A stretch of DNA of 64,000 nucleotides, taken from NCBI RefSeq assembly GCF_036971445.1, contig NC_091478.1, forward strand, positions 35,030,001 to 35,094,000, written 5' to 3'. The DNA comes from Narcine bancroftii. Its lineage: Eukaryota. The number at the start of each line of letters is the position of its first letter. Positions within the stretch are counted from its first letter, which is position 1. Below, one piece after another: positions 1 through 53,948 of this stretch. The position numbers were made by a program, and so were the translations under genes. The notes beneath the pieces were generated by a model, which saw only the letters and a program-made list of their open reading frames with translations, made no database searches and was not told the origin of the DNA.

Positions 1-3000
1 AGAAAGAATTGAATCAGGCAGTTACAGTTATTTTATGGAGAGGGAGAGAGAAAGAGATTGAGGGAGAGAGAGAGGAGAGCGAGAGAAAGAAAGAGAGATA
101 GAAAAGTATAGTTACCCATAATTAAATTCATCATAAAGACCCAAGGGTTGGAGAATGCACTGATGAAAAATTGTTTTTCCTCAATTTTACTTGACTCACA
201 CTTACTTCTCTTGTCCAGCCTCTTCCCACTTAGAACTGTGACAACTCTAATCCCTTCTACCACACAGTTTCTAGTTTCCTAATCCTAACCAATCCCTCAG
301 CACCTCCTTCCCAGACCAGGAAGATTGGGACCCCTTTGACCACTACTCTACTTATCCATTCACAATCAGATTTTTTATTGTTTAGTTGTAAACCTCTTTA
401 ATCTTGTGATCCATCTTAACAACTTTTTCTTAATTGGATAAAACACCAATGAACAGGTTGTTTTAAAAATCAAACTGTTATTTGTTTAAAAAGACTGGTG
501 CTCAAAATTGGACATCTGGCAGTATAACAAACATTAACAAACACTTGTTCCATTTGGATCAATACAGGTTGTACCTGGGTTATGAGTGCCTGCCCCGGGA
601 TACCTCTACAAACAAATTAGGTCCCATAATAGTATTAAATTCAATACATACATAATATGCTCCTGTCGACAAACAACAGAACGAGTTTCCATTCTCCACT
701 TTTAGTGATTGTTATTTTTCTCAGCTGTTTGTGCTTTTAATGCCATTCAGTAAAACATTGTGCAGGTTATGAAATGTTTTTTGTGTATTTTCTAATTGAC
801 AAAACCATTGTTTGCTGGGGACAGAATATACATGGACTGGAGCGCCATCAAGTGGTTGGAAAGTTTCTGTCCAAAAGTGCAGGAGTGAAGAGTGAAGAAA
901 CTATGTAAATTTATCTGTGTGGAGATCTCTGGGTATAGTATTCCAATTTTTTTTATACTCAGTTTCAATGAGATCAGTTGTTGATGAATTTTCTTAAATC
1001 TTTCTTGCAGAAGGGATTTCCCAGAATGTTGAGAGAAACACGAGAGGCTGCAGATGCTGTGATTGTAGTAATACCACCAAAATGCTAGAGGAACACAGCT
1101 GGTCTATTCAGCTTTCTGATTTTAACGTGAAGAAGGGCTCAGGCCCAAAACATCGGCAGTATATCTTGGTCTCCTATAGATGCTGAACAGACCAGCATTT
1201 CGGTGTTTTTTTTACCAGGATGTTGCTTGGATTAGATGGAATGAGCTAATTACAGGGGTTGAACAAACCTGGGTTGTTTTCTCTGGAGTGCAAGAGGCTG
1301 AGGTGAGAGCTGATCATTTTTTATCAAATTATGAGGCATGGACAGGGTAAACAGTCAGAACCAGGGTAAAAGTACCACATACAAGAGGATATACATTTCA
1401 GGTGAAGGTGGGAAGATCTTTCCTGGACCCAACATACTAATGGCATCATGAAGAATACACATCAGCACTCCTCAGGGGTTTGCGGAGGTTTGGTATGACA
1501 TCGGAAACCCTGGCAGATTTCTACAGATGTGTGGTGACCAGCTGCATCACAGTCTGATATGGGTTCACCAACGTCCCTGAGTGTAAAGCCCTGCAAAAGG
1601 TAGTGGACACAGCCCAGGACCTCACAGGAAAAATTCTCCCCACCACTGAGAACATCTACAGGGAACGCTGTGCTGGAGAGCAGCAGCAATAATTAAGGAC
1701 CCACACCACCCAGCACACATTCTGTTCTCATCGCTATCATCAGGAAAGAGGTCTAGGTCCCACAAGACTTGCACCGCCAGGTTCAGAAACACCTGCTACA
1801 CCTCCACCTTCAGACTCCACAACAACAAAGTGATCCATTTATGGACTCTTACTTTTGTACTTTATTGATTTTTTTTTTCTTTCCTTATTGCACAGTCTGT
1901 TTTATTTGTTTACATGTGGACATTGAGTACAATTTTTTTTTGCACTGCCAGTAGGTGGTAATTCTCCCTGGCCAACAGGAAAAAAAGAACCTCAGGGTTG
2001 CATGTTATGTCATGTATGTACTCTGACAATAAATCTGAAATCTCTGATGTTCAGGTCAAGTTTCCTTTACACAGAGAATGGTAAGTGCCTGGAAAGAGCT
2101 GACAGGCATAACAGTGGAAGCAGATATGAGAGTAATGTTTAAGAGGCTTCCAGATTGACACACTGATGCACAGGGAATGGAGGAATATGGATCATCTGCA
2201 AACAGAAGAGATTTTGTTTAATTTGGTATCAGGTTTGACACAGATATCATGAGCCAAAGGGCAGTTCCTGCACTGTGTAGTTTTTTTTTGTTTTATCTCT
2301 ATCATCCATTTCTTATAGAATGGGTTGAGCTAATGGAATGCACTGGTAGAAACTTTTATGAAAAGTTTATTGGTCTAAATTTCAGTTTCTAATGAAATTG
2401 CCTACTGTGACCATAGGATGTGGTGGGTATTCTCACTCATATGTAACTTGCATTAGCCTATGTAACATGTTCAGGTTAAGTCCTGTAGACCTTCTTTTGT
2501 AATTTAATCAATCTGTGAGAGCCAATGTGTTGTTCACCCTGAGTTGTAAGGTGCTTTAATTGACCTTTAACCTTTTTGCAATTCTAAGCGGTGGGAAAAA
2601 AGAGCAGCGTGTAATAAAGTTGGACTGCAGGGAAATGGGGGTGATGGGCAGATTATGCACACATTTTAATTCAAAAATGAATAGGCAAATAAACATATCT
2701 GAACAAAGTGAAGGGAGGAACTTTTAGGAGATAACAGGGGTACGTTTTTTACACTGAGAATTGTGGGTGCCTTGAATGCTTTGCTAGCTGTGGTGGTAGA
2801 GGCTGGACAACAGGGGCAATTAAGAGACTCGGAGACAGTCACATGGATAAAAGAAAAATGGAGGGTTATAAGGTTGAGAGAGTTTTGGGGTTTTTTTTGA
2901 TAGGCATTTACAGGTCGGAACAATAGGGCCTGTAGTGTGCTGTAATATTCATGTTCTATATATGTTCTATGTTGTAAATACTGGTGTGCCTGATTCTGTA

Positions 3001-3798
3001 GCCTGTGGTGGTGTATATCCCAATATAACTCATCTGCATGAATAAAACAGAGAGTGATTGCACAGTCACCAAAAGTGATCCACTGATCCTCTTGCAGCCA
3101 CCTGCCCTCTAATTCTGCAATCGGGTTCCTTGTTCAAAACCTCTGGATCCAGATTACCCACTAGAAATATTTTGGCATGCAGTAGCTGGCAAGGAAGACT
3201 TCCTCCCTGGTTGGATTTATGGGCAGCATCTTATCAAGGCAGAGGTAACTCTGTTTTGGCAGATTGGAAGCTGACAGATGGGGCCACAAACTTAGTGAAG
3301 GGAGCAGGGGTGTGCATTAAGCAGCGAGGTTTCTTTTGTTGTGACTTGTTTCAAGCAGATTATATCTATGCGTTTTAAGAAAATTCTATGTGCTATATTA
3401 AATGAGTTGAGCTGAAGAGCATGTTTCATGCTATATGGGGTTCTAGGGAAGAGATAACAGTGTCATGATGTTTGATAGGAGACCAGCAGATGATACTGTA
3501 ACAGATCAGTCTACCTAATGGGGATGACGACATCAGGAGATTTTTCAAGGTGTGTTGAATATTAGAAAGCAGGTTAGAATGTTATAAACAGCTTTGTATC
3601 GATGCTGATTTCAAATGACACTGAAAGAGAATAAACAGGTGGACTCCATTTAAAAAGTATAGCCACGAAAGGCAACAATTTCTAGATTATAACCAAATCC
3701 ATGCATATTAACATAGCTTAATGTAGTGTACGTGTTTACAGTGGTTTTGCAGTTAAAATACAAGACCAGAAATCTAGAGGCCTGGAGAAAGGACAATA

Positions 3799-15799: not shown

Positions 15800-16430
15800 G
15801 TTATTGACAAGAGTTCAGTCTGGTCGGAAGATCCGGGGCGAGGTTCATGATGCAAAAAAATCGAGGAGGCCAATGAACGGAATGAAGCTCGTCCCTTCGC
15901 ATTCCCATTCCCAAACGAACCCTGCTCAGCTCTCCGGAACCTGAACTAGAACCAGGGTCCAATAGACGAGCTGCGAGCTCACAGGTACTCCTCCCTCCCT
16001 CCCTCCCTCCCCCACTTTCTGGTTGCCTCCCACGCTGGGACGAAGCGCACAGGACGGGTGTGGGCGAAGGGGGGAGCAGTGCCCATCCGTCTCTTCCCCA
16101 CAGCCAGTCCGGGACACAGATGGGAATCCTCTACTCGGAGGTAAGTGCTGAAGGACGGGACCGGACCGGACCGGGCGGGTGCCGAAAGGTGCGAGCGTCT
16201 GATGCTGGAAAATGACGGGAGCAAGACATTGATGGACGGTTTTTACTTTCCCAACTTTTTCACGGTGCTTGCTGGAAGTTGGGCACTTTGGTCGCGTCGG
16301 TAGACCTGTATCAATTGGGTGTCATCGCTCTCCTGGGCGTGGGCCGGCGGGGAGAGAGACCGGACCTTGTGGGTGGTTCCCAGGTTAACGCTGGAAGGAG
16401 AAGTGACGGCGTTGTTTCTTCTGCTGGGTT
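15800..16430 (+). promoter_or_regulatory. CpG-rich promoter/first-exon region of ANKRD22
   Basis: Local CpG/GC enrichment around the ATG exon in otherwise CpG-poor DNA; CCAAT motifs near 15870 and 15959; GC-box-like GGGCGG. TSS cannot be determined. Confidence 0.65.
16120..16140 (+). CDS. ANKRD22: ANKRD22 coding exon 1 (MGILYSE)
   Basis: ATG GGA ATC CTC TAC TCG GAG followed by donor GTAAGT at 16141. Matches the known ANKRD22 N-terminus MGILYSE and sits in a CpG-rich region. Confidence 0.93.
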
Positions 16431-16440
16431 CGGAAGCAGG

Positions 16441-18490
16441 TGGGGGGGAAAACAAGGTGTGACCAAGTTGGGGGGGGGGAGGAGGGGGAACAAGTGTGAC
16501 CAAGTTGGGGGGGGGGGAGAGGGGGAACAAGTGTGACCAAGTTGGGGGGGGGGAGAGGGGGAACAAGTGTGACCAAGTTGGGGGGGGGAGGAGGGGGAAC
16601 AAGTGTGACCAAGTTGGGGGGGGGGAGAGGGGGAACAAGTGTGACCAAGTTGGGGGGGGGGAGAGGGGGAACAAGGTGTGACCAAGTTGGGGGGGGGGAG
16701 GAGGGGGAACAAGTGTGACCAAGTTGGGGGGGGGGGAGAGGGGGAACAAGGTGTGACCAAGTTGGGGGGTGAGGAGGGGGAACAAGTGTGACCAAGTTGG
16801 GGGGGGGGAGAGGGGGAACAAGTGTGACCAAGTTGGGGGGGAGAGGGGGAACAAGGTGTGACCAAGTTGGGGGGGGGAGAGGGGGAACAAGTGTGACCAA
16901 GTTGGGGGGGGAGAGGGGGAACAAGGTGTGACCAAGTTGGGGGGGGGGAGAGGAGGAGGGGGAACAAGTGTGACCAAGTTGGGGGGGGGGAGGAGGGGGA
17001 ACAAGTGTGACCAAGTTGGGGGGGGGAGAGGGGGAACAAGTGTGACCAAGTTGGGGGGGGGGGAGAGGGGGAACAAGTGTGACCAAGTTGGGGGGGGGGA
17101 GAGGGGGAACAAGGTGTGACCAAGTTGGGGGGGGAGGGGGAACAAGGTGTGACCAAGTTTGGGAGGGGGAGAGGGGGAACAAGGTGTGACCAAGTTGGGG
17201 GGAGAGGGGAGAACAAGGTGCGACCGGGGGGAGGGGGAGAACAAGGTGCGACCGGGGGGAGGGGGAGAACAAGGTGCGACCGGGGGGAGGGGGAGAACAA
17301 GGTGCGACCGGGGGGAGGGGGAGAACAAGGTGCGACCGGGGGGAGGGGGAGAACAAGGTGCGACCGGGGGGAGGGGGAGAACAAGGTGCGACCGGGGGGA
17401 GGGGGAGAACAAGGTGCGACCGGGGGGAGGGGGAGAACAAGGTGCGACCGGGGGGAGGGGGAGAACAAGGTGCGACCGGGGGGAGGGGGAGAACAAGGTG
17501 CGACCGGGGGGAGGGGGAGAACAAGGTGCGACCGGGGGGAGGGGGAGAACAAGGTGCGACCGGGGGGAGGGGGAGAACAAGGTGCGACCGGGGGGAGGGG
17601 GAGAACAAGGTGCGACCGGGGGGAGGGGGAGAACAAGGTGCGACCGGGGGGAGGGGGAGAACAAGGTGCGACCGGGGGGAGGGGGAGAACAAGGTGCGAC
17701 CGGGGGGAGGGGGAGAACAAGGTGCGACCGGGGGGAGGGGGAGAACAAGGTGCGACCGGGGGGAGGGGGAGAACAAGGTGCGACCGGGGGGAGGGGGAGA
17801 ACAAGGTGCGACCGGGGGGAGGGGGAGAACAAGGTGCGACCGGGGGGAGGGGGAGAACAAGGTGCGACCGGGGGGAGGGGGAGAACAAGGTGCGACCGGG
17901 GGGAGGGGGAGAACAAGGTGCGACCGGGGGGAGGGGGAGAACAAGGTGCGACCGGGGGGAGGGGGAGAACAAGGTGCGACCGGGGGGAGGGGGAGAACAA
18001 GGTGCGACCGGGGGGAGGGGGAGAACAAGGTGCGACCGGGGGGAGGGGGAGAACAAGGTGCGACCGGGGGGAGGGGGAGAACAAGGTGCGACCGGGGGGA
18101 GGGGGAGAACAAGGTGCGACCGGGGGGAGGGGGAGAACAAGGTGCGACCGGGGGGAGGGGGAGAACAAGGTGCGACCGGGGGGAGGGGGAGAACATGGTG
18201 CGACCGGGGGGAGGGGGAGAACAAGGTGCGACCGGGGGGAGGGGGAGAACAAGGTGCGACCGGGGGGAGGGGGAGAACAAGGTGCGACCGGGGGGAGGGG
18301 GAGAACAAGGTGCGACCAAGGGGAGGGGGGGGGGGAAACAAGGTGCGACCAGGGGGAGGGGGGGAAACAAGGTGCGACCAGGGGAGGGGGGGAAAACAAG
18401 GTGCGACCAGGAGGAGGGGCAAACCAAGGTGTGACCAGGGGGAGGGGAAACCATGGTGTGACCAAGGGGAGGCGGTAACAAGGTGTGACC
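16441..18490 (+). repeat. G-rich compound minisatellite in ANKRD22 intron 1
   Basis: 16441-17210: about 33-37-bp units GAACAAG(G)TGTGACCAAGTT-Gn-AG(A/G)GGGG. 17211-18302: 39 units of 28 bp GAACAAGGTGCGACCGGGGGGAGGGGGA. Degenerate tail to about 18490. Confidence 0.97.
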
Positions 18491-18641
18491 AGAATGAGGA
18501 ACTATGCATTATTCAGAAAATGGCCCCATCAGCGATTTCGGGTGAAATTGAACATACTGTGTTGGGGAATAACGTGTTGTTGGGGCAGAAAATCACTACA
18601 GAGGGTCAATTGCCCAGCCTTCAAATTCCTCTGACCTACGA

Positions 18642-18992
18642 TAATGGTTCCCAACCTTTTTCTTTCTGTTCACATTCCACTTTAAGTAATCCCTATGTAG
18701 TAAGTGGTCTGTGACGAGTAAGGGATTGCTTAAGGTGGGATGTGAGTGGGAGGGGAAGGTTGGGAATCACTGCTCTGACCCAATTGTTACTGAAATATTT
18801 TGCTTGAGAAAAATTGTCATTGGCCCATTTCCTTTGGAGTCATGAAACTGTGCACATAACGAGTCAATTAGGTAAGATTAAAACAGTGGTTTTCAAACTT
18901 TTTCTTTCCACCCACATACCACTTTAAACAATCCCTCACTAATCACAGAGCACTAATGGCATAGGGAATACTTAAAGTGGTATGTGAGTAGA
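18642..18992. mobile_element. Same hAT composite MITE, opposite orientation; partial copy also at about 62540-62700
   Basis: Shared unit and spacer sequence (AAATATTTTGCTTGAGAAAAATTGTCATTGGCCCATTTCC). Confidence 0.8.
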
Positions 18993-20622: not shown

Positions 20623-21046
20623 TGGATGGGTCACGTCTCCAGAATGGAGGACCATCGCCTTCCCAAGATCGTGTTCTATGGCAAGCTCTCCGAGAGAGAG
20701 GTGCACCAAAGAAGAGGTACAAGGACTGCTTAAAGAAATCTCTTGGTGGCTGCCACATTGACCACCGCCAGTGGGCTGATAACGCCTCAAACCGTGCATC
20801 TTGGCGCCTCACAGTTCGGCGGGCAGCAACCTCCTTTGAAGAAGACCGCAGAGCCCACCTCACTGACAAAAGGCAAAGGAGGAAACACCCAACCCCAACC
20901 AACCAATTTTCCCTTGCAACCGCTGCAATCGTGTCTGCCTGTCCCGCATCGGACTTGTCAGCCACAAACGAGCCTGCAGCTGACATGGACTTTTTACCCC
21001 CTCCATAAATCTTCGTCCGCGAAGCCAAGCCAAAGAAGAAAGAAGA
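20623..21046 (+). mobile_element. RTE LINE 3' fragment, same family as 35001-37425
   Basis: Near-identical to the 3' end of the long copy (RGAPKKRYKDCLKKSL...); ends GCCAAGCCAAAGAAGAAAGAAG. Confidence 0.92.
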
Positions 21047-27586: not shown

Positions 27587-27628
27587 TTCTTCTTTGGCTT
27601 GGCTTCGCGGACGAAGATTTATGGAGGG
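27587..27628 (-). mobile_element. About 40-bp RTE 3'-end insertion
   Basis: Exact RTE terminal motif; no clear TSD. Confidence 0.85.
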
Positions 27629-28250
27629 TGCACAAATGCTCTATAGTTAAACTGATTTAGATGTCAATTTGCAAGTTGGAAGGGCTCCAGATCCCCCATC
27701 TTCTGGTGAGAGGAATGGACCTTGGGGTGGTGGGGGGGCAAGGGGAGAGAAAAGGAAGGACACAAGAACCAGTGATCAACTGTGGTTCATAACTTGTGCT
27801 GCTTCCTATTGCTTTTTTAAAGTTTCATAACTTTTTTTGTTTCCCGTAGTAAAAGTAGAAAATAAAATCAGAATGCTGGAAATCTGCAATAGCTTCTGTG
27901 GAGGGGTGAGGGTATGATAATGTTTCAGGCAAAACATTTTTAAATGAAACCTTTATCTTTTTTCATACAAACATGATCTGGCTGGCAGTTTCCCAACACT
28001 ATAATCTGCATAATTTTGAGATTCATACCAATACATTTACACTTTAATGCTGCAGGTTATTGCCTTTACTTTCTGGAGGAAGAGAATTGGCAAGAATGTT
28101 TACTTACTCTTGCCACAGATACCTTCTGACCTGAATATTTCTAGTATTTGCATTTTTTAAATTTCAGCTTTCAAGCATTCTGCATGTGTCTTGCTTTTTT
28201 TTTAAAAAAACTCAGTTGCAACTTCAAGAGGAAAATGAAAGTATTTGTAA

Positions 28251-28335
28251 TCTTCTTTGGCTTGGCTTCGCGGACGAAGATTTATGGAGGGGTAATGTCC
28301 ACGTCAGCTGCAGGCTCGTTTGTGGCTGACAAGTC
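28251..28335 (-). mobile_element. 85-bp RTE 3'-end insertion just upstream of the ANKRD22 exon 2 acceptor
   Basis: TCTTCTTTGGCTTGGCTTCGCGGACGAAGATTTATGGAGGGG...GACAAGTC, matching the RTE 3' terminus. Confidence 0.9.
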
Positions 28336-33610: not shown

Positions 33611-34402
33611 TAGGGGTTCTCAACCATTTTCTTTCCACTCACATTCCACTTTACGTATTCCCTACTGCCATAGGTGCTCGGTGATTAGTAAGGGATTGCT
33701 TAAAGTGTATGTGAGTGGAATGAAAAAGTTTGAAAACCTGTTTTAATCGTACCTCATTGACTCGTTATGTGCACGGATTCATAACGCCAAAGGAAATGGG
33801 CCAATGACAATTTTTCTCAAGCAAAATATTTCAGTAACCATTGGGCCTCGAGCAGTGAATCTCAGCCTTCCCTTCCCACTCATATCTTCTTCTTTGGCTT
33901 GGCTTCGCAGATGAAGATTTATGGAGGGGTATGTCCACGTCTGCTGCAGGCTCGTTGGTGACTGACAAGTCTGATGCGGGGCAGGCAGGCACGGTTGCAA
34001 GGGAAAATTGGTTGGTTGGGTGTTGGGTTTTTCCTCCTTTGTCTTTTGTCAGTGAGGTGGGCTCTGCGGTCTTCTTCAAAGGAGGTTGGTGCCCGCCGAA
34101 CTGTGAGGCACCAAGATGCACGGTTGGAGGCGAGATCAGCTCACTGGCGGTGGTCAATGTGGGAGGCACCAAGAGATTTCTTTAAGCAGTCCTTGTACCT
34201 CTTCTTTGGTGCACCTCTGTCTCAGTGGCCAGTGGAGAGCTCGCCATAGAACACGATCTTAGGAAGGCGATGGTCCTCCATTCTGGAGACGTGACCCACC
34301 CAGCGCAGTTGGGTCTTCAGCAGGATAATTACAGAGCACCGATGACATAGGGATCACTGAAAAGTGGTATGTGAGTGGAAAGATAAAGGATGAAAACCAC
34401 TG
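33611..34402. mobile_element. Same hAT composite MITE, interrupted by an RTE fragment
   Basis: TIRs present; 8-bp TSD ATGTAGCA/ATGTATCA. Confidence 0.85.
33885..34323 (-). mobile_element. RTE LINE 3' fragment inserted inside a hAT MITE
   Basis: Same RTE 3' sequence; interrupts the MITE right-hand unit. Confidence 0.9.
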
Positions 34403-34609
34403 ATGTATCAGGCACTATGCAGCAAGGCACATATATGAATGCTTTTCACTTGAGGTTTTTTTTTTCTTGCATAAACTACTTTGCAAGGTCTTTGTTATAA
34501 TGTATATATAAAAAAAAAATCTGCAATATGACTATTCGGAAATCCTGATGTTCAGGCATTTGACTCACCTCTCGTGTGGTATTACCATAAAACACAAACC
34601 TTTCACTTT

Positions 34610-37600
34610 TTTTTTCTCTTCCTTTTTTTTCAATTTTTTATTTTTCACACCATAAATCACATTAACCATGATACACACTTTTTCCTTTTCACACATATAC
34701 AGTGTCATTTTCTCCCCCCCCCCTCCCTCCTCCCATCCCACCCTCCCTACCTCCCCCCTCCCGTCCATTTAAGGTACAAAATCTAGGATACATTAAACCA
34801 GTCAAACAATGTTGTCATTCAATAAAAATACACAAGAAATTCCACTGAGTCCATTCTTTTAATTTCCTTTTCCTTCCGTTAACTTAGGTAGTGATTGTCC
34901 CCGGTAGATTTTCGCTATTGTGTTTCATGTAGGGCTCCCATATTTGTTCGAATATTTCAATATTATTTCTTAAACTATATGTTATTTTTTCTAATGGAAT
35001 TCTTTGGCTTGGCTTCGCGGACGAAGATTTATGGAGGGGGTAAAAAGTCCACGTCAGCTGCAGGCTCGTTTGTGGCTGACAAGTCCGATGCGGGACAGGC
35101 AGACACGATTGCAGCGGTTGCAGGGGAAAATTGGTTGGTTGGGGTTGGGTGTTGGGTTTTTCCTCCTTTGCCTTTTGTCAGTGAGGTGGGCTCTGCGGTC
35201 TTCTTCAAAGGAGGTTGCTGCCCGCCAAACTGTGAGGCGCCAAGATGCACGGTTTGAGGTGTTATCAGCCCACTGGCGGTGGTCAATGTGGCAGGCACCA
35301 AGAGATTTCTTTAGGCAGTCCTTGTACCTTTTCTTTGGTGCACCTCTGTCACGGTGGCCAGTGGAGAGCTCGCCATATAACACGATCTTGGGAAGGCGAT
35401 GGTCCTCCATTCTGGAGACGTGACCCATCCAGCGCAGCTGGATCTTCAGCAGCGTGGACTCGATGCTGTCGACATCTGCCATCTCGAGTACTTCGACGTT
35501 AGGGATGTAAGCGCTCCAATGGATGTTGAGGATGGAGCGGAGACAACGCTGGTGGAAGCGTTCTAGGAGCCGTAGGTGGTGCCGGTAGAGGACCCATGAT
35601 TCGGAGCCGAACAGGAGTGTGGGTATGACAACGGCTCTGTATACGCTTATCTTTGTGAGGTTTTTCAGTTGGTTGTTTTTCCAGACTCTTTTGTGTAGTC
35701 TTCCAAAGGCGCTATTTGCCTTGGCGAGTCTGTTGTCTATCTCATTGTCGATCCTTGCATCTGATGAAATGGTGCAGCCGAGATAGGTAAACTGGTTGAC
35801 CGTTTTGAGTTTTGTGTGCCTGATGGAGATGTGGGGGGGCTGGTAGTCATGGTGGGGAGCTGGCTGATGGAGGACCTCAGTTTTCTTCAGGCTGACTTCC
35901 AGGCCAAACATTTTGGCAAAGCAGGACGTCAAGCGCTGAAGAGCTGGCTCTGAATGGGCAACTAAAGCGGCATCGTCTGCAAAGAGTAGTTCACGGACAA
36001 GTTTCTCTTGTGTCTTGGTGTGAGCTTGCAGGCGCCTCAGATTGAAGAGACTGCCATCCGTGCGGTACCAGATGTAAACAGCGTCTTCATTGTTGGGGTC
36101 TTTCATGGCTTGGTTCAGCATCATGCTGAAGAAGATTGAAAAGAGGGTTGGTGCGAGAACACAGCCTTGCTTCACGCCATTGTTAATGGAGAATGGTTGA
36201 GAGAGCTCATTGCTGTATCTGACCCGACCTTGTTGGTTTTCGTGCAGTTGGATAATCATGTTGAGGAACTTTGGGGGACATCCGATGCGCTCTAGTATTT
36301 GCCAAAGCCCTTTCCTGCTCACGGTGTCGAAGGCTTTGGTGAGGTCAACAAAGGTGATGTAGAGTCCTTTGTTTTGTTCTCTGCACTTTTCTTGGAGCTG
36401 TCTGAGGGCAAAGACCATGTCAGTGGTTCCTCTGTTTGCGCGAAAGCAAACCCCAGAAAGAGGTTCAATGTTGGAAACCTGCAGTCAGACGAAGCGAGAG
36501 GAAACTTCCAGGCAAACCTCAAAGCAAAGCTCGACGATGCAACCCGCCTCACGGACCCGTCCCCTGAAACCCTCTGGGATCAGTTGAAGACTACCATACT
36601 GCAATCCACTGAAGAGGTACTGGGCTTCTCCTCCAGGAAAAACAAGGACTGGTTTGACGGAAACAGCCAGGAAATCCAGGAGCTGCTGGCAAAGAAGCGA
36701 GCTGCCCACCAGGCTCACCTTACAAAGCCGTCCTGTCCAGAGAAGAAACAAGCCTTCCGTCGCGCATGCAGCCATCTTCAGCACAAACTCCGGGAGATCC
36801 AAAATGAGTGGTGGACTAGCCTCGCCAAACGAACCCAGCTCAGTGCGGACAATGGCGACTTCAGGGGTTTCTACAAGGCTCTAAAGGCTGTGTACGGCCC
36901 CTCACCCCAAGTCCAAAGCCCGCTGCGCAGCTCAGACAGCAAAGTCCTCCTCAGCGACAAGATCTCCATCCTCAACCGATGGTCAGAACACTTCCAATCT
37001 CATTTCAGTGCCAACCGCTCAGTCCAAGATTCCGCCCTGCTCCAGCTCCCTCAACAGCCCCTAAGGCTAGAGCTGGATGAGGTTCCCACCCTGGATGAGA
37101 CATATAAGGCAATCGAACAACTGAAAAGTGGCAAAGCAGCAGGTATGGATGGACTCCCCCCAGAAGTCTGGAAGGCTGGCGGCAAAACTCTGCATGCCAA
37201 ACTGCATGAGTTTTTCATGCTTTGTTGGGACCAAGGTAAACTGCCTCAGGATCTTCGTGATGCCACCATCATCACCCTGTACAAAAACAAAGGCGAGAAA
37301 TCAGACTGCTCAAACTACAGGGGAATCACGTTGCTCTCCATTGCAGGCAAAATCTTCGCTAGGATTCTACTAAATAGAATAATACCTAGTGTCGCCGAGA
37401 ATATTCTCCCAGAATCACAGTGCGGCTAATGGAATACATTTATTCATTTCTATATACCATTGTTGTATTTTCAAATTATCTTCCAATTTCCAGGTTGACA
37501 TAATACATTTTTTTGCTACGGCTAGAGCTATCTTAACAAATCTTTTTTGTGCATCCTCCAAATCAATTCCAAATTCTTTGTTTTTTATGTTACTTAGGAG

Positions 37601-38218
37601 GAAGATCTCTGGATTCTTTGGTATATTGTTTTCTGTTATTTTATTTAATATCTGATTTAGATCTTCCCAAAATTTTTCTACTTTCTCACATGTCCAGATT
37701 GCATGAATTGTTGTTCCCATTTCTTTTTTACATCGAAAACATCTATCAGATACTATTGGGTCCCATTTATTTAACTTTTGAGGTGTAATGTATAGCCTGT
37801 GTATCCAGTTATATTGTATCATACGTAACCTCGTATTTATTGTATTTCTCATCGTTCCAGAGCATAACTTCTCCCATGTTTCCTTTTTTATCTTTATATT
37901 TAAATCTTGTTCCCATTTTTGTTTAGTTTTACCATTTGTTTCCTCATTCTCCTTTTCTTGGAGTTTAATATACATATTTGTTATAAATCTTTTGATTATC
38001 ATTGTATCTGTAATCACATATTCAAAGTTACTTCCCTCTGGCAAACTCAAACTGCTTCCTAATTTATCCTTCAAGTAGGATCTCAATTGGTAATATGCCA
38101 GTGCTGTATCTTGAGTTATGTTGTATTTATCTTTCATTTGTTCAAAGGATAATAATCTATTTCCTGAAAAACAATTTTCTATTCTTTTAATCCCTTTTTT
38201 CTCCCATTCTCTAAAGGA
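34610..38218 (-). mobile_element. Young 5'-truncated L1/Tx1-clade LINE (ORF2 C-terminal CCHC region + 3'UTR + A-rich tail), interrupted by the RTE
   Basis: ORF with C..C........H....C knuckle continues in frame (..KCIPL|EKITYSL..) across the insertion to TAA at 34884. 16-bp TSD ACAAACCTTTCACTTT at 34594-34609 and 38219-38234. Confidence 0.93.
35001..37425 (-). mobile_element. Young RTE-clade LINE, 5'-truncated and 5'-inverted
   Basis: Minus ORF 35054-36418 with RT motifs (FVDLTKAFD, GVKQGCVLAP, LFADD); upstream part on + (about 36448-37425, NYRGITLLS..ESQCG). 10-bp TSD CTAATGGAAT at 34991-35000 and 37426-37435. Confidence 0.95.
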
Positions 38219-39956
38219 ACAAACCTTTCACTTTGAAGCAATTGTCAATATTCTGAATTTTGGCAGTGGGAGAAAGATCATTCTATATATATATATCTTG
38301 ACAATGGCAGCTGTACAAAATGTTGATTGGAACTGGGAGAGTTGGAAGAAATAATGTAAATATTCTAAATATAATGAAAAGAGAAATGGTCCAAATGGGA
38401 TCCAATAAACAGTAGGTGGAAGGAGAATTCTGCCTAATGGCACCTTTGTTCACACACTCAGCACCTGGCATTTTAATTTTTAAATTAATTTTAAAATATT
38501 AAAAATGTGCAGCATGGTAGAAGCCAATTCCAGCCATTTAAATCTGAGCCACCCAATTACACCTAATTTAATCTATAACCCCATGTGTTTTGGAGGGTGA
38601 GAGGAAACCAGAGCACCTGGGACAGACCCTCGCGGAGGCTGGGAGAACATACAAGCTCCTTGCACACAGCGTCAGATTCGAACCTGGGTTGCTGGCACTG
38701 TAATAATGTCACGCTATCCGCCACTCTAACCTCATTATTGCTACCTCCCTTAAACTGAGTGAGATCTTGACTGCTCTAATGAGATGGACATTTCTTAAAT
38801 TATATCAACCAAAAATAAAATGATATTGGATCTGGTATCTGTCCCACCCAGCTGTGTTGATGGGTTCCACCTGCAGCTGTTGCCTTGTTGATAGAATCAC
38901 CAAGAGGCAATGGCAGATTAACCACCACCCGAGACCCTAGGCTGAATTTTAGTAAGGCCCGCACCTCCAGGATCAGCGTCATGGTGGGGGTATTCGTGAC
39001 CATGCCTCTACTCACCAACTTCTAATCCTCTTGCTCTCTCACACGCACTTGGAGTTGTGCGTGCCACAGCTTGTTGTTTGGTTTAGTGGAATTTTTCTAT
39101 GCTCTGTAAACTTGAGGACAAATATGTGTTGTGGTGGTAAATGTAATTTTGGAAGAAAATAGGGCGGGTGGCGTGGGGAGGGGTAATGACTTATAATCAG
39201 TTGTAGTTCCAATGCTTGTGTTTTAAATGGAAGATTCGGCTATTTAAATTGAAGCTTATGCCCACTCACATCTTAAGATGATTTTGTGTGGGTGTGCGTC
39301 ATGTCAGTTTCAATCTTTAAAGCTGTCCTATGCGTTATCGCCCTTTTTGGGTTAGTCTTTTCGCTGTTCATGTTGGAGATGTCATTATTCTCCATGGACG
39401 CTCTCTGAGCCACGAGGCCCCTCCAGCTTTTCCCAGGCAGCGGACTGACTGAGCTCCCCCTCCCTTCCTGCCCATGACAAGCCGAGAACCTCTGACCCCG
39501 GACGGCACGAGCCTTGACTGAGCGACTAGAGGAGAAGTTCAACTTCACTAATATGTACTTAGTACTATATAACATCCATAAATAAAAAATATCACGAAGA
39601 CAAGTTCGATGAATCGATGATAACAGATCTTGTATTCCACATTATTATCCATCATAATTTGGTCACATCGTGCTCTTTCTTTGCTGCACAGATTATTTCG
39701 ATTAAGTTGTTGAGGTGTTCACTTCGTTTATGGAAAAACAAGTGACTTGTTGGGACAGGAGAGGGGTCAGGTGGATGCTGGAATATAACAAGGAAGAGTT
39801 TAGGAGTCTGGCCCCCTCGAGTCCCAACGAGCACGACCCGGGCTGGCAGCAGGCACTGAACTAGCCTTGTAACCTATCCCAGAAGTGGCACTGGTAGTTT
39901 GATGCCTCAGTTGCTGGCCCGGCGTCATGTCATGCTCGTCGGGACTCTTTCCCCAC

Positions 39957-46559: not shown

Positions 46560-48830
46560 CCAAGTAATTTTCCTAGAACATTATGGCACTGAAACAGGCC
46601 TCTTTGGTCCTTCTAGTCTGTGCCAAATCATTTATTTCTGCTTAGTCCCACTGATCTGCACCCAGTCCATTAGCCTTCCAAACCTCTCCCATCCATGGAC
46701 TTGTCCAAATGCCTCTTAAATGTTAAAATTGAGCCTGCATTCACCACTTCAGCTGGAAGCTCATTCCCCACCCCCACCACACTCTGTAAAGAAAGTATCC
46801 CCTCACAATCCCCTAAACCTTTCCCCTTTCACTCTTAAACCATGTCCTTTGGTTTGTATCTCACCTATCCTCAGTGGGAAGCCTATCTACACTTTCTGTC
46901 TATCCCCCTCATAATTTTAAAGACCTCAATCAAATCTCCCCTCATTCTGCTATGTTTCAGGCTATAAAATTCTAATCAGTTTAACCTGTCCCTGTAAATC
47001 AGTCCCTGATGTCCAGGCAACACCCTGGTAAATAAACTCTGCACTCTTTCTTGTATCTTTCCTGTAGTGAAGTGACCAAAACTGCACATAATACTCCAAA
47101 TGTGGCCTCACCAATGTCTTGTACAATTTTAACATAACATCCCAATTCCTGTAATCAATACTTTATGATTCAATCCATAGCTATTCAAGTAATTGAATAT
47201 CCATTCTCTTAGAACACCTTCCAATAATTTACCTACTACTGACGTCAAGGTCACCGGCCTATAATTCCTAGGGTTACTTTTGAAGGCTTTTTTAAACAAC
47301 AGAACAACGTGAGCTACCTTCCCATCCTCTGGCACCACATCTGTAGCTAAGGACATTTTAAATATTTCTGCCAGAGCTCCTGCAATTTTTACACTAACCT
47401 CCCTCAAAGCCCGAGGTAATATCTTGTCAGGTTCTGAGGATTTATCCACCTTTATTTGCTTTAAGCCAACAGGCACTTCCTCCTCTTTAACCTGTATTGG
47501 TTCCATAAGCTCTCTGCTTATTTTCCTTACTTTCCACAACTCTGTGCCCTTTTCCAGAGTGAATACTGATGGGGGGGGGGGGGGGAGGCATTTAAGACCT
47601 CTCATATCTCTTTGTCTCCATACAAAGCTGACCACTCTGACCTTCAAGGGGATCTATTTTGTCCCTTTTGCTCTTAATATACCTGTAGAAACCCTTAGGA
47701 TTTTCCTCCACATTGTCTGCCAAAGCAACCTCATGCCTTCCTGATTCTTTTGAGGTTTTTCTTGCATTTTTTTGTACTCCTCAAGTACCTCATTTGCTCC
47801 ATGTTGCCTATACTGTTATACACCTTGCAAAACAGTTCCCCAATATTCCTTGAAAACCGAGGTTCCCTATGCCTTCTAATTATTCCTTTGATCCTGACCA
47901 GAACGTACAAACTCTGTACTCTCAATCTTTCACCTTTGAACGTCCTCTACTTACCCCACACAGAAATAATTTATCCAGATCCACGCATTCTAGATCCTTT
48001 CTCATTTCTTCAAAATTGGCCTTTCTCCAATTTAGAATCACACCCAATGCCCAGACCTAGCCTTTCTCCATAAATAGCTGGCATTATGATCACAGGACCC
48101 AAAATGTTCCCCAACACATACTTCTGTCACCTCACCTGTCTCATTCCCTTGTCTTTAGCCACGTGTTAAGCTGCACTATCCTCCTATTTCTAACCTCACT
48201 AGCATGTAGCACAGATGGCAATCCTGAGATCACAACCCAGGAGGTCCTGTCCTTCAACTAGGTGCTCAACCCCCCCTGAAATCACCTTGCAGGACCTCTT
48301 CACCCTTCCTACCCACGTCATTACTCCCCACATGGACCACAACATCTGACTGCTCACCCTTCCTCCTGAGAATGCCATGAACTCTATCTGAGATACCTCG
48401 GACCCTGGCACCAGGGAGGCCACATACTATTCGCGATACCCGATCTCTCTTCCACTGTACCTCTTATCTGTCCCCAAAACTACAGCTCACCTCTTCTCCT
48501 CCCTCCCCTTCTTAGCCACAGGACCAGAATTTGTGCTAGAGAACTGATCTGTGGTTTGTCCCTGGTAGGTTTCCCCCACCAACAGTATCCAAAATGGTAT
48601 ACTTGTTACTGAGGGGGGCAGCCACATGGGGTGCCCTGCACTGCCTGCCTGTTCACTTTCCCTCTCCTGTCACCCATCTACCCTCCTCCTGCTCTCCTAT
48701 CACCCTCTCTGCCTCCCGAATGATTTGGAGTTCTTCCAACTCCACCTCCAATTCCTTAACTTGGATGGTCAGGAGGCAGCAGCTGGATTCTCTTCTCGCT
48801 GATGAAGTTGTCAGGGATACTGACAACCCA
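46560..48830 (-). mobile_element. Degenerate CR1 LINE
   Basis: ORF 47129-47647 with DKSSEPD..LFKK..NPRNYRPVTLTSVVGKLLE (CR1 RT N-terminus). Other CR1 3' pieces at about 1215-1420, 2050-2280, 2700-2960, 9090-9710, 30650-30970. Confidence 0.85.
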
Positions 48831-53712: not shown

Positions 53713-53756
53713 GTCTCTTTGGCTTGGCTTCGCGGACGAAGATTTATGGAGGGGGT
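53713..53756 (-). mobile_element. 44-bp RTE 3'-end insertion downstream of the lipase stop
   Basis: RTE terminal motif flanked by 11-bp TSD ACACAGCCACA (53702-53712, 53757-53767). Confidence 0.92.
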
Positions 53757-53948
53757 ACACAGCCACAATTTGGGCATTAAATTACCAAAGCTTTAATTAA
53801 AAATCTAGTATAGTCTCTTTTAAAAAAAAAAAATTATCGAAGACCAATCAATAGTCCAAGTGTTGCAATTGGAATGTAAAAAAAATACACAAAACATCAA
53901 ATAGAGTGATTCCAGTTTTAAAGTGGTTTATCGCACACTGTTTTGCGT

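Follow-up and report, generated by a model that had tools for sequence, protein, structure and literature searches.

The DNA analysed here, referred to as the window, is a stretch of 64,000 nucleotides from Narcine bancroftii (contig NC_091478.1, positions 35,030,001 to 35,094,000 of the forward strand), in which positions are counted from the first letter. At 35001-37425 it carries an insertion of an apparently RTE-like LINE, which interrupts an L1-clade LINE, termed the host element (34623-38219). The host element has its own 16-bp target-site duplication (TSD) at 34594-34609 and 38219-38234, as located by a TSD search. A sister copy of the host element gave a protein score of 328 bits against human L1 ORF2p, and the zf-RVT match in the 5' piece of the host element was weak and below the Pfam cut-off. 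The features of the locus are collected in Table 1.

Table 1. Features of the insertion and of the host element, in window coordinates
Feature	Position	Strand	Basis
3' piece of host L1-clade LINE: end of ORF2, 3' UTR, A-rich tail	34623..35000	-	BLAST to another natural copy
TSD on the 3' side of the element: CTAATGGAAT, or ATTCCATTAG when read in the element's direction	34991..35000	+	Sequence; single in 12/12 other host-element copies
Sense 3' part of RTE-like LINE (consensus 2246-3701), with the remainder of the RT domain and a C-terminal Cys/His motif	35001..36447	-	BLAST 98.8%; Pfam RVT_1
Stop of the 3' part at 35054-35056; 3' UTR of about 53 nt, ending GCCAAAGA	within 35001..36447	-	
In-frame 9-nt deletion in the 3' part	near 35916	-	Comparison to consensus
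AAA inserted between the inverted and sense parts	36448..36450	+	Junction aligned to consensus
Inverted 5' part, 975 nt (consensus 1272-2246), comprising the linker and the first portion of the RT	36451..37425	+	BLAST 98.9%; haplotype common to 3' part
TSD on the 5' side of the element; the element sequence runs on into its first two bases, CT (2-nt microhomology)	37426..37435	+	
5' piece of 5'-truncated host L1-clade LINE	37426..38219	-	96.3% to another copy

Read in the direction of the element, the insertion consists of a TSD, an inverted 5' piece, three extra bases, a sense 3' piece with its GCCAAAGA end and a second TSD, the 10-mer CTAATGGAAT being read directly in the sequence on both sides. 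BLAST against a family consensus of 3,701 nt, built from 11 long copies, placed the sense piece at consensus 2246-3701 with 98.8% identity and the inverted piece (36451-37427) at 1272-2248 with 98.9% identity, or, without the microhomology, 36451-37425 at 1272-2246. The two segments are thus contiguous on the consensus, in agreement with the original prediction, in which the plus segment ending in ESQCG was continued directly by the minus segment starting GCTTTCGC. Of the two ends of the inverted piece, the one abutting the TSD is the one whose sequence is resumed by the sense piece (ESQCG, then FRANRG). The two pieces overlap by 1 nt when CT is assigned to the TSD, and by 3 nt (GCT) when the 2-nt CT microhomology is included. 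The AAA at the internal junction, absent from the earlier account of the locus, adjoins a stretch of 5 nt (AAAGC) that the first bases of the sense part share with the family sequence immediately ahead of the truncation point, and the junction as a whole occurs only once in the genome. A Pfam RVT_1 match is retained in the sense part (E=6.5e-23); the copy is 5'-truncated, without the endonuclease domain and the 5' UTR. The insertion is dead, and no function is evident for this single copy in the window.

The insertion site is uninterrupted and holds a single 10-mer in 12/12 further copies of the host element, unaltered in 10 of them and with one change in 2, and the insertion therefore duplicated 10 bp and lost nothing. 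The claim that a single 10-bp TSD brackets both parts was in this way upheld. The same evidence weighs on the proposal that the 5' part was inverted after insertion, or that two independent insertions came to lie side by side. The family is dense, with 45,548 genome matches to an exact 40-mer near its 3' end, so opposite neighbours do occur, and one of 30 inspected matches to the genome-wide pattern described below was such a pair. Here, however, one TSD encloses both parts with no loss of target, the coordinates are contiguous, the inverted part has no 3' end and a five-site haplotype spans both parts; a later inversion should moreover also make the mirror geometry, for which 0 matches were found against 704 of the observed form. 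We regard both versions of this proposal as extremely improbable.

Relative to the consensus, the window copy has 19 substituted positions in addition to the in-frame 9-nt deletion. Five of the 19 are common family variants, and their combination, which spans both pieces, is the commonest among long uninverted copies (8/20). The possibility raised beforehand, that the segments belong to two subfamilies or to independent insertions, was looked for and gave one haplotype across both parts within one enclosing TSD. The remaining 14 substitutions are private or nearly so, in 2,422 nt (0.6%), and set against the median identity of 97.9% to the consensus in an unbiased sample of copies they make the window copy one of the younger copies. 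A recent origin had been proposed from the open reading frames. Both frames are indeed open, but they say little about age, since 19 random substitutions leave no stop 46% of the time, and the private substitutions are the better measure.

A misassembly of the locus would be suggested by the assembled short-read contigs, none of those listed spanning the internal junction. These contigs, however, offer pieces of only 31-35 nt in a collapsed repeat, with a unique flank depth of 3.5-4.5, and the two joints found in them come from other copies, one being the normal collinear arrangement (36447/37424) and the other the empty host site (34990/37426), with 10 letters in common. The exact TSD matching the empty site, the consistent haplotype and the hundreds of like structures with TSDs of their own all speak against misassembly, which we consider scarcely credible. 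Fold-back copying at the window locus was likewise rejected, as it would duplicate the 3' part and not supply 5' sequence.

The family from which the insertion derives has a single open frame of 1,145-1,195 aa in the long copies L068 (1000-4437) and L074 (833-4420). Exo_endo_phos and RVT_1 matches lie above cut-off in long copies, which places an APE endonuclease and an RT in one ORF, and no separate ORF1 was seen in the family element. The frame ends at consensus 3645 of 3701, followed by a 3' UTR of about 55 nt, and the tails are short AAG/AAAG repeats with no poly(A). The encoded protein is distant from both L1 ORF2p (72 bits) and R2 (75 bits). Placement of the inverted element in the L1 clade was rejected on this score (72 bits versus 328 for the host element), together with the lack of poly(A) and of any TSD of at least 15 bp. 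The available excerpts of PMC6007223 and PMC4245944 describe RTE-clade LINEs (BovB and RTE-1 types) as having a TSD peak at 10-12 bp, a TSD that starts with A, a T stretch about 10 nt upstream, a short A-containing 3' repeat, and APE and RT in one frame. The present family resembles them in its TSD mode of 11-12, A as the first base in 32/38, upstream Ts, short-repeat 3' end and single APE-RT ORF. Set against those descriptions, anatomy and target-site features thus point to an RTE-like family. None of the 120 protein matches listed carries a clade name, and the named relatives among them are from amphioxus and a carp (70-75% identity) and from crustaceans (64-65%). Such likeness to amphioxus, carp and crustacean sequences hints at horizontal transfer among aquatic animals. 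From its uninterrupted frames the family may have been active recently.

Several other features of the family were observed. A variable array of a 15-bp unit lies near consensus 265-446 in the copies L064, L066, L074 and L076, where it is in frame and Ser/Thr/Pro-rich, and in some long copies it is preceded by a repeated 5' motif of roughly 43 nt. Of the uninverted truncated RTE copies, only roughly one in four to one in three had an exact TSD of at least 9 bp, against all of the inverted copies (100-copy sample, L031-L060, L081-L140, L171-L178).

The rate of inversion was estimated from the first 100 listed matches of the 40-mer, which are consecutive and fall in one 6-Mb stretch of one chromosome arm (contig C1, 2.0-8.2 Mb). 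An adjoining inverted 5' piece was present in 8/100 copies (Wilson 95% CI 4-15%), inverted pieces under about 18 nt being missed, and an exact TSD of 9-13 bp accompanied 8/8 of them. When the copies were divided by the length of the sense part, inversions were found in 0/33 under 400 nt, in 8/48 at 400-1,500 nt and in 0/19 above. Among the long copies from the first search, where 40 were scored, 5/32 were inverted after one doubtful case had been dropped. A genome-wide pattern was also applied, consisting of an antisense motif at consensus 2800 followed by a sense motif at 3000 within 400 nt, which covers a breakpoint interval of 185 nt. It returned 704 antisense-then-sense matches and 0 mirror-image matches, alongside 33,176 collinear ones. 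Inspection of the first 30 of the 704 gave 25 with a TSD of 9-14 bp at the inverted end, 1 with 8 bp, 3 for which no TSD was called and 1 that consisted of two separate copies; by chance, at least 9 nt were shared in 1/300 mismatched flank pairs. The original prediction, which had extended twin-priming-type inversion to the family as a whole and proposed a genome-wide count, is thus borne out by the consecutive copies and by the strict polarity of the matches. Inversion of the 5' part is a regular feature of this RTE-like family, and the twin-priming slip known from mammalian LINE-1 is likely to be routine here too.

A set of junctions was assembled from 45 flagged copies, of which 43 were kept and 38 of the 43 had a TSD of at least 9 nt. 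Two candidates had been dropped before the junctions were counted: L153, in which the inverted piece reaches the 3' end, indicating two copies, and L003, a 21-nt match with a TSD made of a TG repeat. Amplification of an already inverted master copy was also rejected, as the window junction occurs once and the 43 breakpoints differ.

The internal ends lay within 20 nt of each other in 25/43 inversions, a figure based on BLAST ends that are uncertain by a few nt and on a pattern-selected set that favours close ends. In 16/43 inversions, 8-141 nt were present on both pieces, and this duplication of 8 nt or more requires two copying events. It bears directly on a repair-made inversion, in which the 5' piece of a single cDNA broken near 2246 would be reattached in reverse through microhomology-mediated end joining, or the top strand would be extended by a host polymerase. 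Such a route yields the same orientation and TSD, the microhomology levels equal those of plain truncations, extra bases are present at the internal junction in the window, and remodelling of the ends at L1 cut sites has been described (bioRxiv 10.1101/2024.12.14.628481). A single broken cDNA, however, cannot supply sequence to both pieces. The full TSD was moreover kept in 8/8 inverted copies against 21/92 uninverted ones (p=2e-5; 32/85 uninverted with a looser search), which is the opposite of what end resection would give. On balance a repair-made inversion seems unlikely. Four of the 8 unbiased inversions are without 168-1,531 nt between the pieces, gaps that a two-RNA or repair route also explains. 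At the junction between TSD and inverted piece the mean microhomology was 2.1 nt (n=38), against 0.33 by chance, and at least 2 nt were found in 22/38, against 6% by chance. The CT microhomology to which attention had been drawn in the window is real, at 2 nt, but is not diagnostic of priming on RNA, as uninverted truncated copies have it equally often (mean 2.0, n=23).

The co-resident L1-clade family is also subject to inversion. Its pattern, based on conserved motifs, matched 85 inverted, 7 mirror and 8,965 collinear copies, and the rates are not strictly comparable with those of the RTE-like family, as the two patterns differ in spacing. A T run early in the match was seen in 5/7 listed L1-clade mirror matches, as for a second copy inserted the other way. 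Among the first 30 L1-clade inversions (L191-L220), 19 had a TSD of at least 9 bp, against 2/300 by chance, and 9 of these 19 were 15-16 bp long. In contrast, the TSDs of RTE inversions, called at 9 nt or more, were 9-14 bp in 38/38, with a mode of 11-12 and none of 15 bp or above (0/38 versus 9/19, p=1e-5). The target sites of the RTE inversions had T at -1 in 31/38, A at +1 in 32/38 and T at -13 and at -12 in 29/38 each, and their tails were short AAG/AAAG repeats, the same as in uninverted copies. The window locus is without the T pair at -13/-12, which counts against the reading favoured below. Taken together, the length of the TSDs, the AAG-type tails and the T|A sites speak for the protein of the RTE element itself and not for that of L1, and, as judged from these sequence features, each clade appears to use its own enzyme for its flips.

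These comparisons were set against the possibility that an L1-clade protein mobilised the RTE RNA in trans, the flips being a property of L1. In its favour, the genome contains thousands of copies of an L1-clade family that is itself subject to flips, and human L1 makes 5'-inverted pseudogenes according to PMC12016303. The 15-16 bp TSDs seen in the L1-clade inversions are, however, missing from the RTE ones, there are no poly(A) tails, the tails match those of uninverted RTE copies and the target-site bases fit the RTE signature. Mobilisation in trans is thus largely refuted by TSD length and tails, and we hold it to be very unlikely.

We therefore favour, with high confidence although from sequence comparison, the reading that the window holds one dead, 5'-truncated, single-ORF RTE-like insertion whose front 975 bases are inverted within a 10-bp TSD, probably made by twin priming in cis by the element's own protein. 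What the sequences show is the geometry, the TSD, the common template, the recurrence in about 8% of sampled copies and the strict polarity. From the geometry we infer twin priming, and with it the order of the cuts, the use of the RNA by the top strand as a priming template and the way in which the two cDNAs were joined. In outline, the element endonuclease would cleave the bottom strand at a T|A site, and the AAG-type 3' end of the RNA would be the starting point of reverse transcription. While the first cDNA was still incomplete, the top strand would be cleaved at a distance of 10 nt, and its freed 3' end would pair over 2 nt (CT) with the same RNA near 2247, from where a second cDNA would run to 1272. 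The first cDNA would stop at 2246. The two cDNAs would then be linked, for which the 5-nt AAAGC match may have served, with a slip of 3 nt, and the remaining gaps would be closed by repair.

A model of 5'-inverted, twin-primed L1 insertions was reportedly put forward by Ostertag and Kazazian in 2001. The mechanism itself is known, and the present data extend its documented range to a single-ORF, non-L1 clade. In the excerpts available, a twin-priming model is described for the 5' inversion of mammalian L1 (PMC2912911, PMC4245944, PMC12016303), and 5' inversion is described for mammalian L1 and for RNAs carried by L1 (PMC6895275, PMC4476161, bioRxiv 10.1101/2024.12.14.628481, PMC12016303). Early top-strand cleavage is called possibly 'nearly an exclusive feature of L1' in the excerpt of PMC2912911, and inversion in human cells is reported almost only for L1 in that of PMC4245944. 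In the cell assays of the latter, none of the zebrafish ZfL2-1 inserts was inverted, and chicken cells yielded one inverted Nimb-2_DR insert but no inversion of human L1; second priming is argued there to require an overhang of at least some 10 nt, and non-L1 inversion is called L1- and host-dependent. No report of 5' inversion in RTE elements was found in the main texts searched, in which the prime sign cannot be searched for, so that absence from print is not established.

The RTE-like inversions share with mammalian L1 twin-primed inserts the order of TSD, inverted 5' piece, sense 3' piece, tail and TSD, as well as small overlaps or gaps, microhomology at both junctions and a TSD of at least 10 bp that is nearly always kept. 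Close internal ends are likewise common to both, the proportion within 20 nt found here (25/43) standing beside 46% of human L1 inversions in the available text of PMC12016303. Unlike mammalian L1, the element has one long ORF, no poly(A) and TSDs of 9-14 bp instead of about 15 bp, and its inversion rate is lower, at 8/100 against 18-22% in PMC12016303. The TSDs of 9-14 bp fit the need for an overhang of about 10 nt argued in the available part of PMC4245944, but in contrast to the single non-L1 case in the assays described there, hundreds of natural copies and two clades in one genome are involved here. New are the flip rate, the polarity control and the comparison with L1 in the same genome.

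It seems to us somewhat more probable than the contrary that twin priming is general to endonuclease-type LINEs with a stagger of about 10 nt or more, and that it needs no ORF1p, poly(A) tail or mammalian host factors. On this generalisation, given with the same reserve, early top-strand cleavage would not be special to L1, and second priming would protect the overhang, hence the full TSD in flipped copies, which most plain truncations lack. Flips at a rate of about 8% in a single-ORF, non-poly(A) LINE, together with L1-clade flips that have longer TSDs, argue that the outcome is decided by when, and with what stagger, the second strand is cleaved, which is a matter of debate for LINE integration in general. 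By extrapolation, 8% of more than 45,000 copies amounts to thousands of events that could be mined for the rules of second priming. Repeat annotators split such flipped copies into two insertions.

Other elements were observed in the window. Five older, short 3' fragments of the RTE family (33891-34323, 20623-21036, 27591-27636, 28254-28335 and 53716-53766) are 89-94% identical to the consensus. An element with inverted arms, at about 33612-34401 (33615-33666/33687-33738, 34361-34401), surrounds an older RTE fragment and is possibly an interrupted MITE. A G-rich tandem repeat array at about 16250-18700 gives long spurious open frames on both strands. At about 46570-48150 on the minus strand lies what we take, from a motif, to be an old CR1-like LINE fragment. 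Its relatives in other loci are mostly only 65-80% alike, and exact patterns are therefore unsuited to the use of this family as a short-TSD control. Outside the window, L071 (4573-5325, reverse strand numbering) contains an older RTE copy that carries an inverted piece of 55 nt at its front and lies beside a younger copy.
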